A stretch of 56,339 nt of DNA from an uncultured bacterium (lineage in GTDB: Bacteria; Hydrothermota; UBA3072), in the NCBI GenBank assembly GCA_964523975.1, contig CAZGBM010000003.1, forward strand, positions 1 through 56,339, given 5' to 3'. Positions 221 to 52,978 of this stretch are shown one piece after another. Made by a program: the position numbers and the translations under genes. The stretch's first letter is position 1. Every line of letters begins with the position of its first letter. The notes beneath the pieces are model-generated. The model had not been told where the DNA came from, searched no databases, and worked only from the letters and a program-made list of their open reading frames with translations.

Positions 221-3200
221 TTAAAAATCAACTCTTACTCCTAAATTCAAAAACCTCGGGTTGGTATAGTATAAATATTTAAAATCAGGTTTATTTATAT
301 AAACCTTATTGACTTCTCCTACTTTATCATTTCCTCCGATTAGAAGAGTATCAGAGGCGTATCTTTCCTCTTCATACATTGGTAGATGAAGAGAACGCAG
401 ATATTCTATCTTATCCGTGTTTGCGGAATCGGACCTGAAGCAATTGTCGCCGGTCATGTATTTCGAGCCAAACAGATTGTTTACTTCGGCGTAAAGACTG
501 AATTTAAAACCGCGTAACGAGACATCTTTACAGAGGAGCAAATTCCAGTAACCCTCATCCTGCCATTTGAGATTGTTTATGTAGTCCGGGTCGTCGGGCG
601 AAAGAGGGTCCGGCGCAAGAGGGTCGAAACTGAAATAATCGCCGCCAGTTCTGGTATAAAGAATACTGCCGGAAATATTCTTCGCTATCTTTCCCCAATC
701 GTCGGCAGTATAAAAAGTAAGGAGAAGGCAAAGAGTCCCTTTTGGTCCTATCTCGATTTCCTCGAATCCTTCTCCCCGGTATGCGCCCGTATTGAAGTCA
801 TATGACAAAAAGCCTTTAAAAAGTTTGCCGTATCTTTTTCGTAGAGAAATTTCAAATCCTTCTATATTGCCGTAAGCGTTGTTCGTGTAGGTCGTATAAG
901 AAATCTCCCCGTTATCATCATAATCTGTCTCTCCTGTCTGGTAATCATAATTGTTGTAATAACCTGAAACGTGAAACAAATACCGGTCGAAGAAACTCAT
1001 TTCGAAACCCAGTTCATAAGAAATTCTTACAGGTAAGTCCATTTGAGGATTGCCCAGGTATCCGGTCGAGTCCGAATAATCATTAAATAAACCAAAAAGT
1101 CTTTCGGTTTCGGGCAGTAAGTAAAAATACCCAAAGTTGAAGTAAATTTTGCCGGATTCGCCAAGTAAAGAAGATACGCCCAGTCGAGGGCTTATTTTCC
1201 ATTCGACGTCATTCCTTCCCGAATTGTAATAATCCAGTCTTAACCCGAATTTAGTGTAAGCGTTTTCAAAAGAAAATTTATCCTGCACATAAAGCCCGGC
1301 CCGGAAAAGTTCTGCTTCCCAGTCGGCAACATTCATGAGTTCTCCCGTTCCTCCGGAGATATAATTGGACGAATTCGAATATATCCTGTCATGATTGATT
1401 TGGAGCCCGGTTTCGAGCTGATGGCGGGAAGAGACTTGCGAAGTTGCCTCAACGCTGAAGTTGATGGTGTTGACCCAGGAGGCGTCCTGCACTATCCTTC
1501 CGAAGTTACTGAACACAAAATCGGAAGGTAGCAAGTCCCGATAATAACAATAATTGCCGGGGAAACTTTCATAGCCGAATGGTGTTTCTCTCGGTATCGC
1601 TATATTTCCGAAGTATATAAGGTCAGTCGTATCTCTGTAATTTTCGGGGAAATCCGGTTCTTCCCATACCGGGGTCGTTAAGTATCTCGACCGCGAATAA
1701 GAAAGCCTTAAATTATAAAATGTAGATGGACTTAGAGAATGGCTAAAATCCAGACCCCATAAGTATCTTCTTATATCATAAGGATTAAGAGCGTCCACCC
1801 AGTACATAAAATCCTTTTCTGCAACATTTTCAAGTATATTACCGCTACCTGCCCAGATTCTGCCGTTCGGGTATATTTCCCGTGAGTCTCTGGTGACGGT
1901 TTCTATGGTTTCGAATATTCCTTTTATATTGAGTTTTACTTCGGGTTTTAAGCGAAACGTTATTTTCCAGTCTGTTTTATTGTCGACGTAATTTTCTCTC
2001 GTAACGGGAAGAGAGAAAGGCTCTATGTTCCTTACATTAGAGACAAAAAAAGTTATATTGTTTATCCCCGGGAAAGGGCCCCCGAAGCCGAAATCAAACA
2101 TATACCCGGGTTTATCCCCATAAGTTCCAGGTATCTGACCAAGAGCCTCGCTCTCTTCTACCCTGTAGATATACATAAATAAATCTCTCCACTCCTCGGG
2201 TGTAAGGGTATCTCCTTCGGATTCTCTCTCTCTGGAATACTGAATCCAGCCGTCGAATTCCTCGTAATCATCTTCTTCCTCCGGCAGTACTGTTGTACCA
2301 TTCCAGCAGAGACTGTCCGTTGTATCGACGAACGGACGAATGTGGACGTTATCCCGGCTGAAAATTCCATTGCCTTCGTGCGGCATGTGAGGAAGAGTGT
2401 ATCGAAAATTAGCTGAACCATGATAAGAATCTCTCCTTCCTTCTTTTTCTATTATGTTGATTATACCTGAACTTGCATTGCCATACGCGGCATCGAACCA
2501 TCCGTCAAGCACGACGACATTATCGACGGCAGACAAAGGGGGAGACAATATCGATGTATTTATTCTGTTGTCAGATATAGGGAACCCATCGGTTACAAAC
2601 ACATTCTGCGGGGATTTTCTTTCCCTGTAGCCTAAATCCGCCATTCTATGAAAAGCAAGATAATCTTCAAGGCTGGCAACTAAAGGGATTTCATTTATTT
2701 CTTCGATAGTTGAATAATAGTTTCTTGAAGAGATATCCGTTTTGATAATTTCTTTTTCCGCTTCCAGGGTCACATCTCTGCCCTTAACCGTTCTGGGAGC
2801 GAATAGTTTAAGATTCAGGACGGTATTGTGGTCTGTTTCGACGGTAACACTTTTTACGGTCAGGGGCAGGTACCCGATTCCCCTGGCTTGAATCTCATAG
2901 GTTCCGGGAGAAACATTGTTAATATGGTATGACCCGTCTTTTCTGGAATCTACACCTAAACTTGTTCCTACAACTATTATGTTAACTTCTGACAGAAGTT
3001 TACCCGTTTTAGCATCAACAACTGTGCCTTCGATTTGTCCTTTAATACTTGCTGAAGACTTTAAAGAAAAAACAAAGAGAAAAAAAACTATAATGGGACG
3101 CAGATGAACACAGATTAAGAAAGGATTTTTGTTTATTTGTCTGCCCTCGTACCCGGTACCGGAAACTCGGTGCCTGAAATATTTTTCCCATCTACGATAT

Positions 3201-16687: not shown

Positions 16688-16960
16688 CAAAATGCAAAAA
16701 TCAAATATTAAAATGAAAAATGACAAATCAAAATTTAAAAAAAATCAAACCACGAGATTCCACAAGATTAACACCAGATTTTTGGTTTCGTTTCCCCATC
16801 CCCAAAACCCATAAAATTAGCCACGGATTAACACGGATGTACACCCTTGTACGGTCGTTTCTCTCTACAGGGCAGGCAGATATGAAAAAGTTTTTTGAAT
16901 TAACTACAATAAAAGATGGTTGGGAAGGGAATCCGTGATTATCGGTGCAGATCTGTGGCT
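16688..16960. repeat. Cluster of short-tandem-repeat arms including an inverted pair
   Basis: 7-mer array caaaatg/caaaaat/caaatat (16688-16740); aaccacgagattccacaagatt (16748-16780); agccacggattaacacggat (16819-16844) inverted to atccgtgattatcggtgcagatctgtggct (16931-16960). Confidence 0.7.
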
Positions 16961-17433: not shown

Positions 17434-17462
17434 AACCACAAAGTACACAGAGGAACACAAAG
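17434..17462. repeat. Orphan repeat arm
   Basis: aaccacaaag tacacagag gaacacaaag, 9-10 bp period starting with AACCAC. Confidence 0.55.
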
Positions 17463-17537
17463 AATTCGGTAACGGGGAGCCAGAAGTTAAAATTCCTAAA
17501 ACTTTGAAATTTTTGGTTTGGCAAAAGGAAATAAACT

Positions 17538-38832: not shown

Positions 38833-40077
38833 TCATAATTTTTTAATCTTCCATTCCCCTTCAGCATGGACAATTCCTCTTTCCAGCAAATTGCCGGAAA
38901 CCTTAAAAGCCCGTTTAGGTAAGATTCTTTCATAAGTTTCACCTGTAGCACTATTCCGGATAGAAACCATAGGTATATAAGCTCCCGGCATAAGATGGTG
39001 TTTTTTATATTGCACAACAATCCGGTATCTTCCCTTATTCAGGTTTCTAAAATTTACCTTATCATTGTCATTGCTTACAGTCCAAATACAAGGTCTCTTT
39101 TGCTCATCAAGAATTCCCATGGAAAAATGTAATTCTTCAACATCTTTTTCTAATTTAAAATCACAGAATTGATTCAACGGCTCATTCATGTCAATAGAAT
39201 AGGTCTTTTCTCCATTATCATTGAGTATTCCCGAATCTATATACTCAATTTCCCCTGAGGAAATTCTGGCTTCTATACCTTTTGCGTTTTCTTTTTTCAT
39301 TGATTCTAATCTTAAATTTCTCGCCAGCTCATGATATTTCACTATTCCCGTAAAAGTATCTCCAAAATAAACTGGTTTGCCATGAGAAAGAATCATCACT
39401 TTAGAACAGATATTGCGAACTTGCCCCAGGTTGTGCCCGACAAAGACAACACCTTTTGCTCTCTTTCTTAAGTCTGCAAGATACCTGAAGCATTTATTCT
39501 GAAAACTTAAATCTCCTACTGCAAGTACCTCGTCAATTAGCAAAATTTCTGGTTCACAATGAATTGCAACAGCAAAGCCCAATCTGACAAACATTCCACT
39601 TGAATAATACTTTACAGGTGCATCCAGAAAATCTCCAATGGCGGCAAATTCTACTATGGAATTCATTTTCCTATCTACTTCTTTCTTTGTCATTCCCAGT
39701 ATTGCGGCATCGAGGTAAACATTTTCTCTTCCTGTAAGTAATGGATGAAAGCCTGCTCCTATTTGTATCAATGCTCCTACTTTTCCCTTAACAGTAATTT
39801 TTCCTTTGTCAGGCCAAAAAATACCGTTTAGAAGTTTAAGCAAGGTCGTTTTCCCGGCACCATTAGGACCTATGATACCCAATGTCTCTCCCTTTTTGAC
39901 TTCGAAAGAAACGTCATCTACCGCCCAGAATTCGCCTTTTCTAAGTAAATGAGAATGCGAGCTCATACCAAAAGCATTTTTCGTAATATCTTTAATACCA
40001 TAAAGCATAGACCTTCTTAAAGACTTGCAGTATTTTTTCGAAACATTTTCGACTTTGATTGCAATTTCATTATTCAT
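38833..40077 (-). CDS. wzt: Polysaccharide ABC transporter ATPase with C-terminal Wzt_C domain
   Basis: GPNGAGKTT, YSSGMFVRLGF, LLIDEVLAVGD; about 170 aa C-terminal extension. Confidence 0.93.
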   Translation of the reverse strand: MNNEIAIKVENVSKKYCKSLRRSMLYGIKDITKNAFGMSSHSHLLRKGEFWAVDDVSFEVKKGETLGIIGPNGAGKTTLLKLLNGIFWPDKGKITVKGKVGALIQIGAGFHPLLTGRENVYLDAAILGMTKKEVDRKMNSIVEFAAIGDFLDAPVKYYSSGMFVRLGFAVAIHCEPEILLIDEVLAVGDLSFQNKCFRYLADLRKRAKGVVFVGHNLGQVRNICSKVMILSHGKPVYFGDTFTGIVKYHELARNLRLESMKKENAKGIEARISSGEIEYIDSGILNDNGEKTYSIDMNEPLNQFCDFKLEKDVEELHFSMGILDEQKRPCIWTVSNDNDKVNFRNLNKGRYRIVVQYKKHHLMPGAYIPMVSIRNSATGETYERILPKRAFKVSGNLLERGIVHAEGEWKIKKL

Positions 40078-40081
40078 ATTT

Positions 40082-40515
40082 AACCACAGATTCCACAGAT
40101 TTTCACAAGATTTTTCTTTTTATTTCTAAACTTTTCGTGCCAAAATTGAGCAGCAAACCAATACGCATTCTAGTCGCTTTAAGATAATTCAGCAATTGAG
40201 CTTCATCAATCTCAGTTAAAGCCTGCGTTGCCTTTACTTCAACAATAATTTTATCCTCTATTAAAATATCAGGTATGTATTTCCTATGAATAATTAGATC
40301 TTTATAGTAAACATCAATATCTTTCTGTCTTTCGAAAGAAATATTTCTTAATTTCAACTCATGATATAAGGCCTCCTGATATACATATTCCAAAAAACCA
40401 CAACCCAATTCTCGGTGAACTTCTATTGCTGCCCCTATTATTTTCTCTGTTAAATCCCTATATAACCAATTAATATTATTTTTTTTCTGTGTTAATCTCG
40501 TGTAATCTCGTGGTT
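40082..40515. mobile_element. Putative cassette: GxxExxY gene bounded by inverted tandem-repeat arms
   Basis: Left arm aaccacagattccacagattttcacaaga (40082-40110), right arm tctgtgttaatctcgtgtaatctcgtggtt (40486-40515); interrupts wzm-wzt adjacency. Mobility is inferred, not shown. Confidence 0.55.
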
Positions 40516-40519
40516 CCAT
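40103..40519 (-). CDS. GxxExxY protein (PD-(D/E)XK nuclease superfamily)
   Basis: GFLEYVY motif, PDILIEDKIIVEVKA, AQLLNYLKAT, GLLLNFG; ATG at 40519. Confidence 0.93.
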   Translation of the reverse strand: MEPRDYTRLTQKKNNINWLYRDLTEKIIGAAIEVHRELGCGFLEYVYQEALYHELKLRNISFERQKDIDVYYKDLIIHRKYIPDILIEDKIIVEVKATQALTEIDEAQLLNYLKATRMRIGLLLNFGTKSLEIKRKIL

Positions 40520-40521
40520 TT

Positions 40522-41364
40522 TTATATCCTCTCCGTTATTCTTGTTTCCGTAAGATGAAAAATTATTAAGCCCACAAGAAAAACAAGAATAGAAGTTGTA
40601 ACCGATAACAGATAACCTTTCCATTCTACCATTGTACCTTTTAATATAAGTTCTCTGGGCATCGAGATCAAATAATATAGAGGATTAAAATTTGTAATGG
40701 GCATAAGTATACCTGTTTTAGGCTTAGCATATAGCACGGGTGTCAAAAACATTACGAAAGTCATAAGAACAGATAAAGCGTTACCTATATCTCTTACTAC
40801 GCTGTTGAAAAGAGAAAAGATAAAACCAAAACCAAGAGTCAATAAAAATATAGGTACCATAAAGATCGGAAGAAATAATATTTTTATGTTTGGACTTACG
40901 TTGTAAACAAAAAACAACACAATTACCAAGATAATTTGTACTATAAAAGCTATCAGCGACTGAGCAGCAGAGGCAAACACAAGCGATTTTTTAGAAAAAT
41001 TTATTTTTACAAGCATGGAACCAGCGTTAACCAGAGAATTTGAAGTGGCAATTAATCCGGTCGAAAACAATTGCCAGAAAGCCATTCCAAGTATCGCGTA
41101 AATCGGATAGGGAACCTCTATATCCCCGAATTTAAAAATACCTGAACGATTGAGAATTATAAATGTTCCCACACTTATTATCGGTATAATAAAAGCCCAG
41201 AGAATACCAATTAATGACTGCTTGTATATTGTTAAAAAATCTCTCTTAAATAGTTGAGAAATAAGCCATTTGTTTTCTCTTAACTCCTGGACAATTTCCT
41301 TCCCTAAAGAGAGGTACCCTTTTTTTATCGAATTGTCCGGTTCATAGGTCTTTAATTCGTTCAT
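40522..41364 (-). CDS. wzm: Polysaccharide ABC transporter permease
   Basis: RDFLTIYKQSLIGILW, MFLTPVLY, NPLYYLI. Confidence 0.92.
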   Translation of the reverse strand: MNELKTYEPDNSIKKGYLSLGKEIVQELRENKWLISQLFKRDFLTIYKQSLIGILWAFIIPIISVGTFIILNRSGIFKFGDIEVPYPIYAILGMAFWQLFSTGLIATSNSLVNAGSMLVKINFSKKSLVFASAAQSLIAFIVQIILVIVLFFVYNVSPNIKILFLPIFMVPIFLLTLGFGFIFSLFNSVVRDIGNALSVLMTFVMFLTPVLYAKPKTGILMPITNFNPLYYLISMPRELILKGTMVEWKGYLLSVTTSILVFLVGLIIFHLTETRITERI

Positions 41365-41375
41365 TTCTTAAGCTT

Positions 41376-41404
41376 AATATAAAAATAGAAGATTCAACTG
41401 TCAA
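41376..41404 (-). promoter_or_regulatory. Putative sigma70-type promoter of wzm-GxxExxY-wzt-GT operon
   Basis: TTGACA-17 nt-TATATT, 11 nt before the ATG. Confidence 0.7.
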
Positions 41405-50416: not shown

Positions 50417-50921
50417 TTTCTATTTCAGGAAGATCTCCAAGAGATTCTAAATGAAAAGTTTCCAAAAATTTACCGGTAGTACCATATAAAAAGGGATGCC
50501 CGAAACCATCTTCCTTACCTACAACCTTTATTAACCCGGCATCCTGCAGAGTGTAAATCACACCGGAACTATCCACTCCTCTAATAGCTTCTATATCTCT
50601 GCGTGTTATAGGCTGTTTGTAGGCGATTACCGCAAGTGTCGTTAAAGCAGCTCTGGACAGATACAATTCTTTTTTATCGGATAACTGTTTTATAATTTCG
50701 GCAAATTCAGGTTTTGTAAAAAGTCTATATCCCTTATTTACCTTTTTGATAACGAATGCTCTATCGGTTTCCTCGTATTCTTTTTCCAGCATAGAGACCA
50801 TTTTCTCGACAACCGCGACGGAACATCTTAAGACATCAGCCATTCTCCTCGAACTCAATGGTTCGGGAGATGCAAACAGTAAAGCCTCTACCGCTTTTTT
50901 ATTATTTCCGTCAATCTGCAT
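50349..50921 (-). CDS. scpB: SMC-Scp complex subunit ScpB
   Basis: VEALLFAS, LSRAALTTLAVIAYKQPITR..IEAIRGV, LYGTT..FL..F.L.SL.DLP; GAGG RBS before the ATG at 50921. Confidence 0.92.
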   Translation of the reverse strand: MQIDGNNKKAVEALLFASPEPLSSRRMADVLRCSVAVVEKMVSMLEKEYEETDRAFVIKKVNKGYRLFTKPEFAEIIKQLSDKKELYLSRAALTTLAVIAYKQPITRRDIEAIRGVDSSGVIYTLQDAGLIKVVGKEDGFGHPFLYGTTGKFLETFHLESLGDLPEIENEDSAFFVESRPGSPTTGSDSD

Positions 50922-52372
50922 ATTTCCTCGATTTTTAATATATAACCCATACAGAGAAAAATCAAGCCAAAAACCGCAGTTCCCGTAATAAAAGACAAAA
51001 AACAATCATGGATTCTTTGGCTATAAATAGCCGCAATAAAAGCTATAGAAGAAACCAGTATTATACGTATAAAAAATGAACGTAAATCTCTCAAGATTTT
51101 CCAATACGGTCTAACAAGCAAAATAAACTGAACCAAACCTGAAAGAGATACAGCAAGAGCCAATCCTCTGGCTTGTAAAGTATTGAGGAGGAATATGGCT
51201 AAAACAACATTGATTAAGAGAGCAATATAGCTTATTCTCATTGGAGTTTTTGTATTCTTTTGTGAAAAATATACGTTTATTATTACTTGATTACCTGAAA
51301 TAAAAGGTATTCCCAGAATATAAAAAAGAAGAATAGAAGCGGTTCGGACTGAATCCTGCAGGGTAAATGCTCCATGTTCATAGAGAATACGAATTGCGGA
51401 CATGCGGACCGTAATGAGTAAAAAAACCGAGGGAATGGAAAGGAGAAAAACAGTTCGGATAGACGACAATATATAGGGGTATTGGTCAAGTTTTTGGGCC
51501 GCTTTTCTTGAAAGTTCGGGAAGGGTAACTGCAGCAACCGCTACCCCGAACATTCCCAGGGGAAGCTGCATTACCCTGTATGCATAACTCAGATGAGAGA
51601 TGTTACCGGCGGGAAGTAAAGAAGCAAGAAAAAGAGTAACGCTCACATTTATTTTGCTGGCGGCAAAGGCAAAAAAAACAGGAATGACAAGACAAAGAGA
51701 TTGTTTTACTCCCGGGTGACCCCACTCGGGTTTCTTTAATCTTATCCCGGCTTTTGGAAGAAAGAAAAGCAAAAATATTAATTGCACTCCACCGCCGACG
51801 AGAACTCCTACGGCTGCTCCGAAGATTCCTAAATTTCTGTATAATAAAAAAGAACATATAATAACAGCAAGATTAAAGAAAACAGTATAAATTCCGGTTA
51901 TAAAAAAGCGGTCAAAATATATAAGGATACCCATAACCACAGAAGCAAATGAAATTAGCATCAAAAATGGGAACATCAATCTTGTAAGCTTGACGGCAAC
52001 TTCAAACTGTAGAGGGTCCCTGGTAAAACCTCTTGCCAGAAGCGAAACTATTTGAGGAGAGAATATAATACCCAGAGATACTATAATAGAAAGCACTATA
52101 ATCAGAGGTAAGAGAAAAGAAGACAAATATCTATTGGCACTTTCTTCTCCTTCTCTGGTGCGGTACTCCGAAAAAATCGGCACAAAAGCGGCGTTCATAC
52201 TACCTTCTCCAAAAAAGTCTCTTAAAAGATTGGGAATATTAAAGGCTATCCGGAAAGCGTCCATAAAGGCAGAAGAACCGAAAAGGTAAGCGAAAACCAC
52301 CTCTCGTCCCATTCCTGTTATTCTTGAAATTAGAGTCCCGATGCTGAATCCGCCGACTTTTTTCAATTTCAT
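50888..52372 (-). CDS. murJ: Lipid II flippase MurJ
   Basis: SRITGMGRE, DAFRIAFNIPNLLRDFFGEG, QLPLGMFG. Confidence 0.93.
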   Translation of the reverse strand: MKLKKVGGFSIGTLISRITGMGREVVFAYLFGSSAFMDAFRIAFNIPNLLRDFFGEGSMNAAFVPIFSEYRTREGEESANRYLSSFLLPLIIVLSIIVSLGIIFSPQIVSLLARGFTRDPLQFEVAVKLTRLMFPFLMLISFASVVMGILIYFDRFFITGIYTVFFNLAVIICSFLLYRNLGIFGAAVGVLVGGGVQLIFLLFFLPKAGIRLKKPEWGHPGVKQSLCLVIPVFFAFAASKINVSVTLFLASLLPAGNISHLSYAYRVMQLPLGMFGVAVAAVTLPELSRKAAQKLDQYPYILSSIRTVFLLSIPSVFLLITVRMSAIRILYEHGAFTLQDSVRTASILLFYILGIPFISGNQVIINVYFSQKNTKTPMRISYIALLINVVLAIFLLNTLQARGLALAVSLSGLVQFILLVRPYWKILRDLRSFFIRIILVSSIAFIAAIYSQRIHDCFLSFITGTAVFGLIFLCMGYILKIEEICRLTEIIKKR

Positions 52373-52382
52373 AGAACTAAAG

Positions 52383-52858
52383 GGATCAAGGGGTCAAGGG
52401 TTCGAGGGTTCAAGGGTTAGAATCCTTTTTCTCCAGAGATTTAATAAGAGCCTTCAGCATCCTCTCAACTTCCCTTGCGTTTTCCAGAAGCTTATCTTTG
52501 TTTTCTTGAGTCATATAATCTAAATCATACGATAAAAGAAGTTGAGTTTTCAATTCGCAATACGAACCATAAGCTACATACAGAAACCTTATATACTCTT
52601 TAATTGTTCCTCTCCCATAACCTTCTGCAATATTAGAAGGAATAGAAATAGATGAACGCCTTATTTGAGAAGTTAAACAGTATGTTTCTTCTTTGGGAAA
52701 ACTACTGGTTACTTTATAAATACTAATACATAATTTATATGCTTTTTGCCATACTTTTAAGTCCATATAATTCTTCAACATAATATGCCAGAACTTTGAA
52801 TCTTTAAAATTTTCTTGAAGCTTTCTTCCTCGACCCCTCGACTCCTTGGTCCCTTAAC
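52383..52858. mobile_element. Putative cassette: four-helix-bundle gene bounded by inverted 8-bp tandem-repeat arms
   Basis: ggatcaag gggtcaag ggttcgag ggttcaag (52383-52414) vs cctcgacc cctcgact ccttggtc ccttaac (52828-52858). Mobility is inferred. Confidence 0.55.
52410..52781 (-). CDS. Four helix bundle protein (23S rRNA IVP / TIGR02436-like family)
   Basis: DLKVWQKA, FPKEETYCLTSQIRRSSISIPSNIAEGYGR, GSYCELKTQL. Confidence 0.93.
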   Translation of the reverse strand: MLKNYMDLKVWQKAYKLCISIYKVTSSFPKEETYCLTSQIRRSSISIPSNIAEGYGRGTIKEYIRFLYVAYGSYCELKTQLLLSYDLDYMTQENKDKLLENAREVERMLKALIKSLEKKDSNP

Positions 52859-52903
52859 TTTCTTCTTCCTAACTTGGGATGTGGTAATGTTGGAAGGGTA
52901 GTA

Positions 52904-52978
52904 TCGGGGCGAGTGGATTCGAACCACCGACCTCCTGCTCCCGAAGCAGGCGCGCTAACCAGGCTGCGCTACGCCCCG
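52904..52978 (-). tRNA. tRNA-Pro(CGG), CCA not encoded
   Basis: CGGGGCG/CGCCCCG acceptor stem, anticodon arm CCTGC-TTCGGGA-GCAGG, T-loop GGTTCGAATCC. Confidence 0.96.

Follow-up and report, generated by a model that had tools for sequence, protein, structure and literature searches.

A GxxExxY gene bracketed by complementary arms at the wzm-wzt junction of a candidate division WOR-3 bacterium, and similar cassettes in bacteria and archaea

Results and Discussion

The GxxExxY gene and its host operon

The window, i.e. the whole 56,339-nt stretch of DNA analysed here, originates from a candidate division WOR-3 bacterium and carries on its minus strand, in this order, wzm, a GxxExxY gene and wzt, separated by gaps of 2 nt and 25 nt. 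The wzm gene (40522..41364, minus strand) encodes an ABC-2 permease of a polysaccharide exporter with matches to ABC2_membrane (PF01061) and to a Wzm-type permease model, and wzt (38833..40077, minus strand) encodes an ABC ATPase (ABC_tran, PF00005) with a Wzt_C carbohydrate-binding domain (PF14524). The flanking genes of the insertion comprise wzm, wzt, and glycosyl- and methyltransferases. These profile matches bear out the gene identities given in a preliminary description of the locus, which had placed a GxxExxY gene between two exporter genes that are normally adjacent. The adjacency likewise holds, as the co-directional genes for the ABC-2 permease and the ATPase with Wzt_C are 1–10 nt apart in 44 Wzm-relative loci, mostly in the form TAAnATG, the empty junction sequence being GGATATAAAATGAAT. 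The empty relatives support the GxxExxY gene as an insertion into an otherwise tight junction.

The wzm stop codon TAA (40522-40524) is followed by 2 nt (AA) and by the GxxExxY start codon ATG (40519-40517), and the wzt ATG at 40077 lies 4 nt (AAAT) past the closing 3′ arm; both spacings, as previously described, were read directly from the sequence. An SD-like sequence, GGAGAGGA, is located within the last wzm codons. At empty sites it serves wzt, 7 nt upstream of the wzt ATG, when in the window the wzt ATG has no SD-like sequence in front of it and the base of the arm stem is found 4 nt upstream. A promoter-like site upstream of wzm (41376..41404, minus strand, 11/12 matches, by consensus scan only) was the sole strong one in the region. 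Since the consensus scan returned no terminator-like or promoter-like site inside the insertion from wzm to wzt, co-transcription with the operon is plausible.

The GxxExxY gene (40103..40519, minus strand) encodes 138 aa and was assigned to the minimal PD-(D/E)XK nuclease family by profiles, motif and predicted fold. It matched TIGR04256 (GxxExxY) with an E-value of 1.5e-45 and 154.3 bits (cut-off 35) over profile positions 1–115 of 116, and PF13366 (PDDEXK_3) with an E-value of 4e-43 and 146.8 bits (cut-off 22). The signature residues are G41-F-L-E44-Y-V-Y47, P83-D84 and E94-V-K96; among 94 diverse homologues, Y47 and E94 were invariant, and G41, E44, D84 and K96 at least 90% conserved. The AF2 model built with these 94 homologues in the alignment (pLDDT 91.3) displays the alpha-beta-beta-beta-alpha-beta core of PD-(D/E)XK nucleases, with the arm-encoded residues 1–20 disordered, and replaced a run with a shallow alignment (pLDDT 56), which was discarded. 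The best Foldseek match was Cas4 SSO0001 (E-value 7e-4, TM 0.52), and the other nearest folds were lambda exonuclease, RecE, tRNA-splicing endonuclease and Hjc. Judged by predicted residues and fold, the ORF is a catalytically intact minimal PD-(D/E)XK nuclease. Sequence searches of the PDB with protein and profile queries returned no relative, and a pattern scan of IMG/VR viral contigs returned no GxxExxY relative. A known defence system was considered and rejected, as PADLOC gave sub-threshold Cas4 similarity only. With 19,814 clusters at 50% identity, the family is very large, and its unrelated contexts, spread over many phyla, number in the thousands. The function of GxxExxY/PF13366 is listed as unknown, and its phylogeny mixes bacteria and archaea (PMC3424549).

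Complementary arms around the gene

The gene is bracketed by two arms of ca. 30 nt with the termini AACCAC and GTGGTT and the unit core CAC-R-AGATT. The 5′ arm (40486..40515, minus strand; AACCACGAGATTACACGAGATTAACACAGA) consists of two tandem 10-nt units and is translated as codons 2–11 (EPRDYTRLTQ), and the 3′ arm (40082..40110, minus strand; TCTTGTGAAAATCTGTGGAATCTGTGGTT) is composed of 9-nt units and holds the TGA stop codon (40105-40103). The arms are thus complementary, as the preliminary description had claimed together with their overlap with the first residues and the stop codon, though pairing is imperfect: 24 pairs are interrupted by two single-G bulges, one U bulge and two 2x2 internal loops. 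On account of these bulges and indels the arms were missed by a gapless repeat finder (39900-40700), and folding and gapped alignment were used instead. The proposed loop of about 375 nt is exactly 375 nt between the arms.

Folded as RNA with a GAAA loop, the arms reached −25.2 kcal/mol (z = −5.9; 0/200 shuffles as good), and as DNA −16.7 and −14.1 kcal/mol, depending on the strand. When the whole 461-nt segment of the transcript was folded, the MFE and centroid structures both contained the terminal stem, so that the expected pairing stability is indeed predicted. A chance inverted repeat was excluded by the shuffles of this stem and by shuffled control loci. The Rfam scan of the whole window found only two tRNAs, and no known RNA family at the arms.

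In orthologous wzm-wzt copies, the arms were 0.95 and 0.92 identical, compared with 0.69 for third codon positions in the ORF. Of 9 arm substitutions, 7 were located at one of the 11 positions left unpaired (Fisher p = 3e-5). By this substitution pattern, the arms are under purifying selection from which the unpaired positions are spared, and they are kept at the nucleotide level, according to the loci compared, whether translated or untranslated. Within the CACRAGATT arm family, compensatory changes were detected in only 1/21 pairs (RNAalifold, 20 arm pairs), which implies conservation as much of sequence as of pairing; the pairs of this family are almost invariant, which makes covariation uninformative there and visible only between arm classes. 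A strand bias toward RNA pairing was not found in the GxxExxY arms (37 G.U-type versus 33 A.C-type mismatches), nor in the wzm-wzt cassettes, which mostly carry four-helix-bundle genes (52 A.C-type versus 22 G.U-type mismatches on the sense strand, a count confounded by 3′-arm translation and shared ancestry). With no bias of G.U over A.C, sense-RNA pairing is not favoured over a DNA-level inverted repeat.

Cassettes at the wzm-wzt junction of relatives and elsewhere in the window

Among Wzm relatives, 44 junctions were empty and about 25 occupied, the latter by GxxExxY cassettes (5), TIGR02436 four-helix-bundle cassettes (17) and remnants (3). The GxxExxY-bearing lineages have Wzm proteins 75–86% and GxxExxY proteins 79–88% identical. 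The TIGR02436 cassettes at this junction differ in their arms from the GxxExxY cassettes, have their own SD and ATG, and translation of their 3′ arm extends Wzt at its N-terminus. In L109 and L110 the copies are disrupted and their arms have stayed intact. Relatives carrying the GxxExxY gene at this site without complementary arms had been named as grounds for rejecting the proposal; those carrying the gene keep the arms, except for L108, a single recombinant exception in which a hybrid gene is flanked by arms of two different classes that do not align as an inverted repeat.

Elsewhere in the window, between a tRNA gene and murJ, lies another intact cassette built like that of the GxxExxY gene (52375..52860, minus strand), in which a TIGR02436 four-helix-bundle gene (52410..52781, minus strand; E-value 2e-40) is bracketed by inverted 33-nt arms (52828-52860 and 52375-52407), with the stop codon at the start of the 3′ arm. 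Additionally, cassette remnants were identified upstream of cheW (16748..16960, plus strand): an orphan 5′ arm (16748-16778), of which relative L003 has a nearly identical version, and an ORF-less hairpin (16821-16960) that ends 20 nt ahead of the cheW ATG. An arm-like repeat read directly past the cheW stop codon (17436..17465, plus strand; ACCACAAAGTACACAGAGGAACACAAAGA) is probably a remnant as well.

Distribution of arm-bracketed GxxExxY genes

From many bacterial and archaeal phyla, 84 non-redundant GxxExxY loci were drawn, and an inverted-repeat score of at least 30 was obtained for 61 (73%) versus 0% of shuffled controls. The arms are built of tandem 8–10-nt units, the sequence of which varies by lineage (CACRAGATT, CACGGATT, CGCGGATT, CGCGAATGAA, CACAGAGAA, CGCAAAGAA) when the two arms of one copy stay complementary, each class being answered by its complement on the opposite side. 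Nearly all GxxExxY cassettes keep the termini AACC(A/G)C / G(T/C)GGTT, and the units share the core C-R-C-R-R-A. At 33 loci the 5′ arm lay outside the translated sequence, at 19 within it, and at 8 it contained the start codon; in 45/61 loci the 3′ arm began no more than 12 nt from the stop codon. A co-directional ORF started at most 40 nt past the arm in 31/52 loci, versus 27% at random positions, and at many loci the gene after the arm has its own SD-like sequence (e.g. L036, L041). Tandem cassette arrays were occasional (L022, L037).

The same arms surround copies in ANME-1 and other archaea, and arm class tracks the GxxExxY protein clade; between WOR-3 and ANME-1 the arms are nearly identical when the proteins are only ~70% identical. 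Arm near-identity across such distant hosts, together with the co-variation of arm class and protein clade, suggests that the encoded protein recognises its own arms.

No residence inside an rRNA gene was found by Rfam scan (0/40 GxxExxY loci). One archaeal locus, L042, lies merely 2.3 kb downstream of the 3′ end of an LSU rRNA gene. Flanks of 15 nt in 28 contexts gave no sign of target-site duplication, the longest shared word averaging 3.9 versus 4.0 (sd 0.19) for mismatched pairs. An apparent AAA(A/T)ATG duplication in the window was rejected, as ATG-(G/A)-AACCAC is cassette-intrinsic in unrelated contexts, and the A-rich stretch with ATG belongs to the host-gene start. No transposase, integrase or recombinase was encoded near the cassette, the sole ORF of which is the 138-aa PD-(D/E)XK domain, and near-identical copies at different sites of one genome were not seen. 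None of the papers in the literature collection searched describes such arms at GxxExxY genes, or cassettes of IVS type between cistrons of an mRNA. The preliminary description, in turn, had missed that the locus belongs to a very widespread design, common to the four-helix-bundle IVS proteins.

Comparison with known elements

The closest parallels were found in the intervening sequences (IVS) with S23p ORFs in the 23S rRNA of Coxiella, Leptospira, Brucella and Xanthomonas, the origin, spread and purpose of which have been unclear since about 1990 (PMC4990558). [quoted passage not shown] The wzm-wzt cassette shares with these IVS an ORF of ~120–140 aa in the loop of a stem of ~25–33 bp formed by terminal inverted repeats (here 24 bp, when about 20 bp or more enclosing the element is expected of an IVS), an arm of short tandem direct repeats beside the start codon, an ORF in sense to the host transcript with no promoter of its own, a sporadic distribution suggesting horizontal transfer, and ORF decay that may leave the arms intact. 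Moreover, TIGR02436, the IVS ORF family itself, occupies the wzm-wzt junction of relatives and the tRNA-murJ junction of the window. Unlike the rRNA IVS, the cassette resides at an mRNA intercistronic junction instead of 23S helix 25 or 45, its arms abut the translation signals of its neighbours, copies occur also in archaea, and its ORF is of the PD-(D/E)XK type, the four-helix bundle being encoded in the second cassette and in 17 relatives.

Other small elements resemble the cassette in part. REP/REPIN sequences with their RAYT genes likewise combine a small gene between inverted short repeats with ORF-less hairpins of the same repeat elsewhere, and with co-variation of repeat class and protein clade, but RAYTs are HUH Y1 transposases, not PD-(D/E)XK or four-helix-bundle proteins, and REPs are single GC-rich palindromes, whereas the cassette arms are tandem 8–10-nt units that pair across a gene. 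Terminal inverted repeats with conserved tips and miniature ORF-less derivatives (16821-16960, and the L100 remnant) recall MITEs and TIR transposons; however, neither the target-site duplication nor the transposase of such elements accompanies the cassette, and its arms consist of tandem sub-repeats that differ widely between related genomes. Integron cassettes are similarly promoter-less, single-ORF, co-directional units with an imperfect, structured inverted repeat with extrahelical bases, and one site may receive different cassettes or occasional tandem arrays (here L022, L037). However, the whole attC site of an integron cassette, with its RYYYAAC / GTTRRRY cores, follows the ORF and depends on the IntI integrase; the wzm-wzt cassette has one repeat half on each side of its ORF, tips of AACCAC/GTGGTT and no accompanying integrase. 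Free-standing homing endonuclease genes are comparable as small nuclease-family genes wedged between conserved host genes, horizontally spread, with expression left undisturbed, but they lack complementary bracketing arms; furthermore, the nuclease-free four-helix-bundle cassettes, which encode no enzyme, have the same architecture as the GxxExxY cassettes.

Interpretation of the cassette

On balance, the locus probably represents, with somewhat better than even confidence, an IVS-type selfish gene cassette embedded in the wzm-wzt transcript. By sequence comparison, the same architecture is found around GxxExxY genes across bacterial and archaeal phyla, and around unrelated four-helix-bundle genes. 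Devoid of a promoter and terminator of its own, the cassette would be read with the host operon, and the arms would close a 24-bp stem in the transcript that isolates the ORF as a loop, making the insertion tolerable. Tolerance may be achieved by processing of the stem by a double-strand-specific RNase, in the manner of RNase III on rRNA IVS, or by a translational relay, in which termination at wzm would lead to initiation of the GxxExxY gene 2 nt further on, and termination of the latter inside the 3′ arm would open the stem 25 nt ahead of the wzt ATG. To our knowledge, most archaea are without RNase III, and as archaeal copies have the same arms, this enzyme cannot serve as a general explanation. 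The mismatched arms of L108, and the lack of rRNA residence among the 40 GxxExxY loci scanned, likewise speak against the IVS-type reading.

A DNA-level mobile element is the foremost alternative, and appears rather unlikely. The arms would then be terminal inverted repeats, or form a cruciform or hairpin, cut by the PD-(D/E)XK nuclease of the cassette in a homing-endonuclease- or transposon-like manner, with the RNA stem as a by-product. The conserved termini and unit core, the nearly identical arms of WOR-3 and ANME-1 despite protein divergence, and the arm classes that follow protein clades would all fit such an element, as would the (nearly) invariant catalytic residues among the 94 homologues, the ORF-less and orphan-arm derivatives reminiscent of MITEs, the repeatedly hit wzm-wzt junction, the lack of G.U over A.C bias, and the phylogenetic mixing of bacteria and archaea in PF13366 (PMC3424549). 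Against it count the absence of target-site duplication (3.9 versus 4.0) in the flanks compared and of transposase, integrase or recombinase genes nearby (a trans-acting enzyme may be encoded elsewhere in the genome), and the lack of near-identical copies seen at different sites of one genome. Moreover, four-helix-bundle cassettes, which contain no nuclease, share both this architecture and this junction, and the strongly co-directional, start-codon-adjacent placement would be needless for a DNA-only element.

Restoration of near wzm-wzt adjacency by arm pairing, proposed in the preliminary description as the way in which the insertion is rendered non-polar, was considered as a literal bypass, in which the closed stem would place the Shine-Dalgarno sequence at the end of wzm, together with terminating ribosomes, beside the start of wzt, the ribosome-binding site being split. 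The stable and conserved stem, its base 4 nt upstream of a wzt ATG that has no SD-like sequence before it, and the position of GGAGAGGA 7 nt upstream of this ATG at empty sites are consistent with a bypass. Nevertheless, it is improbable, as the path from SD to ATG across the closed stem would still measure about 15 nt plus the width of the helix end, versus the usual 5–9 nt, and with codons 2–11 in the 5′ arm and the stop codon in the 3′ arm, the ORF can be translated only if ribosomes open the stem. In addition, four-helix-bundle cassettes at the same junction use their own SD and ATG with the 3′ arm translated onto Wzt, and the gene after the arm has its own SD-like sequence at many loci (L036, L041). 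A translational relay and stem cleavage by a dsRNA nuclease would fit the anatomy at least as well as restored adjacency. The shortened RT-PCR product suggested as a check would need religation, and we know of no religation after excision for such bacterial stems; cleavage products are the realistic expectation.

A reading in which the GxxExxY gene serves the exporter as a resident partner or regulator, with the inverted repeat as an ordinary regulatory hairpin between cistrons, is very improbable: the arrangement is retained in several diverged lineages (Wzm 75–86%, GxxExxY 79–88% identity), but most relatives lack the gene (44 empty junctions), unrelated four-helix-bundle genes or remnants take the same place elsewhere, GxxExxY genes are known from thousands of unrelated contexts across many phyla, and the disrupted L109 and L110 persist with intact arms.

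Extending the IVS-type cassette reading beyond this locus, GxxExxY and four-helix-bundle (Avd/S23p-like) genes might, tentatively and with the chances somewhat against it, represent two kinds of cargo carried by a single large and undescribed class of mini-cassettes with bracketing hairpins, a class that colonises transcribed DNA of bacteria and archaea at 5′ gene edges, operon junctions and rRNA helices, with the 23S rRNA IVS as its rRNA-resident subset. The protein would then recognise its own tandem-repeat arms, either in RNA or in an extruded DNA hairpin, and help to process or copy the cassette, which, if true, would amount to a new mechanism of mobility or self-excision without transposase or integrase. 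The two very large families GxxExxY and TIGR02436 are found in the same kind of arm-bracketed cassette, and such cassettes occupy mRNA junctions as well as rRNA; together with the alleles of the wzm-wzt junction, this provides a common testable framework. The junction offers natural alleles (empty, GxxExxY-occupied, four-helix-bundle-occupied, hybrid and remnant) that could be cloned for tests of polarity, stem processing and recognition of arms by the protein. In genome annotation, the arms give rise to spurious N-termini of low complexity and lengthen adjacent genes at the N-terminal end, and their tandem units might pass for CRISPR-like repeats.

The GxxExxY gene and its arms

The 138-amino-acid GxxExxY gene (40103..40519, minus strand), identified by TIGR04256 (E-value 1.5e-45) and PF13366 PDDEXK_3 (E-value 4e-43), is located between wzm (40522..41364, minus strand; PF01061, Wzm/RfbD-type permease models) and wzt (38833..40077, minus strand; PF00005 and PF14524 Wzt_C). 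The 5′ arm, AACCACGAGATTACACGAGATTAACACAGA (40515..40486, minus strand), spans codons 2–11 of the ORF, and the 3′ arm, TCTTGTGAAAATCTGTGGAATCTGTGGTT (40110..40082, minus strand), includes its TGA stop. The spacing given in the preliminary description was confirmed by reading the sequence: the wzm TAA is followed by AA and the GxxExxY ATG, and the 3′ arm by AAAT and the wzt ATG.

Both arms are tandem arrays, with a unit of 10 nt (repeat family D7) on the 5′ side and one of 9 nt on the 3′ side, and due to this difference in unit length they pair with single-G bulges. When linked by GAAA, the arms folded as RNA at −25.2 kcal/mol (z = −5.9) with 0/200 shuffles equally good, which upholds the earlier structural premise that the complementary arms pair. 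Folding was predicted for both strands of the GAAA-linked arms as DNA, and the arm stem closes the MFE and centroid folds of the full 461-nt segment. The wzm–wzt interval contained no terminator-like or convincing promoter-like site; the region's best promoter-like match is upstream of wzm. The host belongs to candidate division WOR-3; its biotin carboxylase was 85–87% identical to the counterparts in WOR-3 MAGs.

The wzm–wzt junction as an insertion hotspot

The junction was surveyed in 80 metagenomic loci with Wzm relatives of 59–83% identity. That wzm and wzt are normally adjacent was borne out by the survey, since the gap was 1–10 nt in 44/80 loci, typically ...GGAGAGGATA TAA A ATG AAT.... 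About 25 of the 80 junctions were occupied by 94–820 nt inserted at exactly the TAAA^ATG point, namely by TIGR02436 four-helix-bundle cassettes (n = 17; profile E-values 1e-30 to 1e-35), GxxExxY cassettes (n = 5), and 94-nt remnants (n = 3; L100, L102, L111). In the window, the GxxExxY gene was inserted at TAAA^ATG, a hotspot junction.

Closer GxxExxY relatives (79–88% protein identity) all occupied the wzm–wzt junction of polysaccharide loci that differed in other respects, and none had lost the arms; a copy at the same site without complementary arms had been named as counter-evidence. Among the five GxxExxY cassettes of the junction survey, the copy in L109 and L110 is frameshifted yet its arms are perfect. 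Another of the five, a distant GxxExxY gene (44% identity) in L124, has quite different arms, CACCGCAGAGACGCAAAGAACGCAAAG and its complement, and in this locus (736–1441) the 3′ arm unit block is present four times over. Locus L108 (2341–2780), also of the five, is a hybrid, in which an L124-type 5′ arm and N-terminus are joined to a window-type body and 3′ arm, and its arms are mismatched because of this recombination.

The four-helix-bundle cassettes at the junction carried arms of the classes (GTTGAAnn)n with (nnTTCAAC)n, GAGTGGATG-type with CATCCACTC-type, and CAGTAATGAG-type with CCCATCACC-type, and complementarity was significant for all arm classes. An SD sequence and an ATG precede the 3′ arm in these cassettes, and translation of the arm extends Wzt at its N-terminus.

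In L101, L114, L115, L116, L119, L123, L125, L128, L130–L132 and L162 this extension was 15–55 residues long and of low complexity, its SD and ATG being supplied by the cassette, and some 5′ regions of these inserts contained more than 10 stacked units belonging to two different arm classes. In L160 (about 1366–2170) two short ORFs adjoin the four-helix-bundle cassette and resemble, by eye only, a broken toxin-antitoxin pair (one ORF, of 54 aa, antitoxin-like, the other with a PemK/MazF-like N-terminus). The wzm end overlaps the wzt start by about 19 nt in L106 (around 1729–1744), where the usual TAAnATG is absent, which may represent a deletion or fusion at the hotspot.

Arm architecture and conservation

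Across the GxxExxY family, which comprised 19,814 clusters at 50% identity (E-value ≤0.001), 80 loci of GTDB species representatives were fetched with the GxxExxY alignment. Bacterial hosts were WOR-3, Omnitrophota, Planctomycetota, Chloroflexota, KSB1, Nitrospirota, Desulfobacterota and others, and archaeal hosts were many Methanophagales (ANME-1), Nitrosotalea and Aenigmatarchaeota. Tandem-unit arms were visible in most loci when the sequence preceding residue 17 and that following the stop were printed. Scored as gapped inverted repeats, 61/84 non-redundant GxxExxY loci (73%) and none of the shuffled controls reached 30 or more. The median arm duplex energy was −40 kcal/mol, versus −25 for shuffles.

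The arm units are lineage-specific, i.e. CAC(G/A)AGATT, CACGGATT, CACAGATT, CGCGGATT, CGCGAATGAA, CACAGAGAA and CACGGAAnAA, and in every copy the downstream arm complements the upstream unit of its lineage. With the units changing and the complement retained, the arms covary as whole classes. The tips AACC(A/G)C and G(T/C)GGTT are recurrent, as is a core C-R-C-R-R-A. The 5′ arm was untranslated in 33 loci, translated in 19, and held the start codon in 8, and is therefore a nucleic-acid feature rather than a peptide; disorder of residues 1–20 in the AF2 model of the protein (pLDDT 91.3 overall) is consistent with this. The 3′ arm began within 12 nt of the stop codon in 45/61 loci, and a co-directional ORF of at least 100 aa began within 40 nt past the arm in 31/52 loci versus 27% at random positions, distances of 0–20 nt being common. 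Some Chloroflexota copies are flanked instead by complete short hairpins of the same units.

In five Methanophagales loci (L023, L024, L026, L027, L029) the GxxExxY frame is open for ~700 nt upstream through the 5′ arm, so the cassette looks like an in-frame fusion to the preceding gene's 3′ end, and the ATG of the next gene lies 0–4 nt past the 3′ arm. A new 5′-type arm 9–20 nt past the 3′ arm, downstream of the GxxExxY stop, in L022, L037 and L043 suggests tandem arrays of cassettes. GxxExxY and four-helix-bundle genes were at most 5 kb apart on the same strand in L048 and L060. Many 250–295-aa representatives in the protein library had two tandem GxxExxY domains, which may reflect fusion or read-through of adjacent cassettes.

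Selection was compared in five diverged orthologous wzm–wzt GxxExxY cassettes. Mean pairwise identity reached 0.95 for the 5′ arm (third codon positions, 0.94) and 0.92 for the 3′ arm, which is largely non-coding; outside the arms, third-position identity was 0.69 in the ORF core and 0.70 in the linker. Of nine arm substitutions, seven fell on the 11 unpaired positions and two on the 48 paired (Fisher p = 3e-5). Pairs are nearly invariant within the arm family of the window cassette, and arms of WOR-3 bacteria and ANME-1 archaea hardly differ in sequence although their proteins are ~70% identical; the constraint therefore appears to act on the sequence itself and not only on its pairing.

The GxxExxY protein

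Residues G41xxE44xxY47, D84 and E94-x-K96 were invariant or nearly so in 94 homologues. The modelled fold is a minimal PD-(D/E)XK core, with Cas4 (4ic1; E-value 7e-4, TM 0.52), lambda exonuclease, RecE, tRNA-splicing endonucleases and Hjc as nearest structural neighbours. Sequence search found no solved structure of any GxxExxY member, and PADLOC matched the gene to no known defence system. The family has been listed without known function, with clades mixing bacteria and archaea (PMC3424549).

Cassette interpretation

We read the window element as an intervening-sequence-type cassette resident in mRNA, on the basis of its insertion at TAAA^ATG, its arms (stable, conserved and resistant to substitution where paired), the design common to the four-helix-bundle cassettes, the co-directional placement next to start codons, the lack of own signals, and the precedent of 23S rRNA intervening sequences (IVS), which is the closest. 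TIGR02436, the family occupying the junction in relatives, was first found in 23S rRNA IVS. In the Coxiella IVS, the S23p ORF lies inside a 28-bp stem of terminal inverted repeats, tandem heptamers GACAGAT adjoin the start codon, and RNase III cuts in mid-stem, with the SD sequence removed (PMC4990558).

In the transcript, the arm stem would isolate the GxxExxY ORF, and the insertion may be tolerated through stem processing, translational relay, or both. In the relay, termination of wzm would be followed by re-initiation 2 nt downstream at the GxxExxY ATG, and termination at the TGA in the 3′ arm would open the stem 25 nt upstream of the wzt start. The mRNA reading is restrained by the mismatch counts, which show no sense-strand G·U bias in GxxExxY arms (37 G·U versus 33 A·C); the junction cassettes, mostly four-helix-bundle, gave 22 G·U versus 52 A·C, confounded by coding. 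It is also restrained by the archaeal hosts, as RNase III is absent from most archaea. Nor was any target-site duplication, transposase or integrase found that would point to a mode of spread, a third restraint on the reading.

Recognition of the arms by the encoded protein is a serious possibility, and the main rival, or complement, to the RNA reading; conservation of the arms at the sequence level and the tracking of protein clades by arm classes speak for it. The proposal that loop-out restores wzm–wzt adjacency and hence non-polarity is not needed to explain the anatomy. With the stem closed the SD-to-ATG path would still be ~15 nt plus the helix end, and in sister four-helix-bundle cassettes the SD and ATG for wzt come with the insert.

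The GxxExxY family and rRNA intervening sequences were already known, and the GxxExxY repeats may have been noticed by family curators. Within an incomplete search coverage, no published account was found of GxxExxY genes generally bracketed by covarying tandem-repeat arms, of a design or insertion junction common to GxxExxY and the intervening-sequence protein family, or of such cassettes at mRNA junctions. A large CRISPR-discovery screen listed ‘23S rRNA intervening sequence protein’ among CRISPR-associated genes (PMC10910872); as a guess, tandem-unit arms might have been scored as divergent CRISPR-like repeats.

Further cassettes and remnants in the window

Profile search of the six-frame translation identified a TIGR02436 four-helix-bundle gene (52410..52781, minus strand) within a second intact cassette (52375–52860, minus strand). 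Its inverted arms of 33 nt each (52375–52407 and 52828–52860, minus strand) are 82% complementary and close the predicted structure, and the TIGR02436 stop codon is at the start of the 3′ arm. The cassette lies between a tRNA gene (52904–52978) and murJ (50888..52372), all in one orientation.

Arm remnants were located on the plus strand: an orphan 5′ arm upstream of cheW (16748–16778), almost identical to the arm of the related locus L003 and translating as KPRDSTRLT, an ORF-less hairpin (16821–16960) ending 20 nt before the cheW ATG, and arm-like tandem repeats after cheW (17436–17465) and close to where a TonB-receptor-like gene begins (3096–3125).
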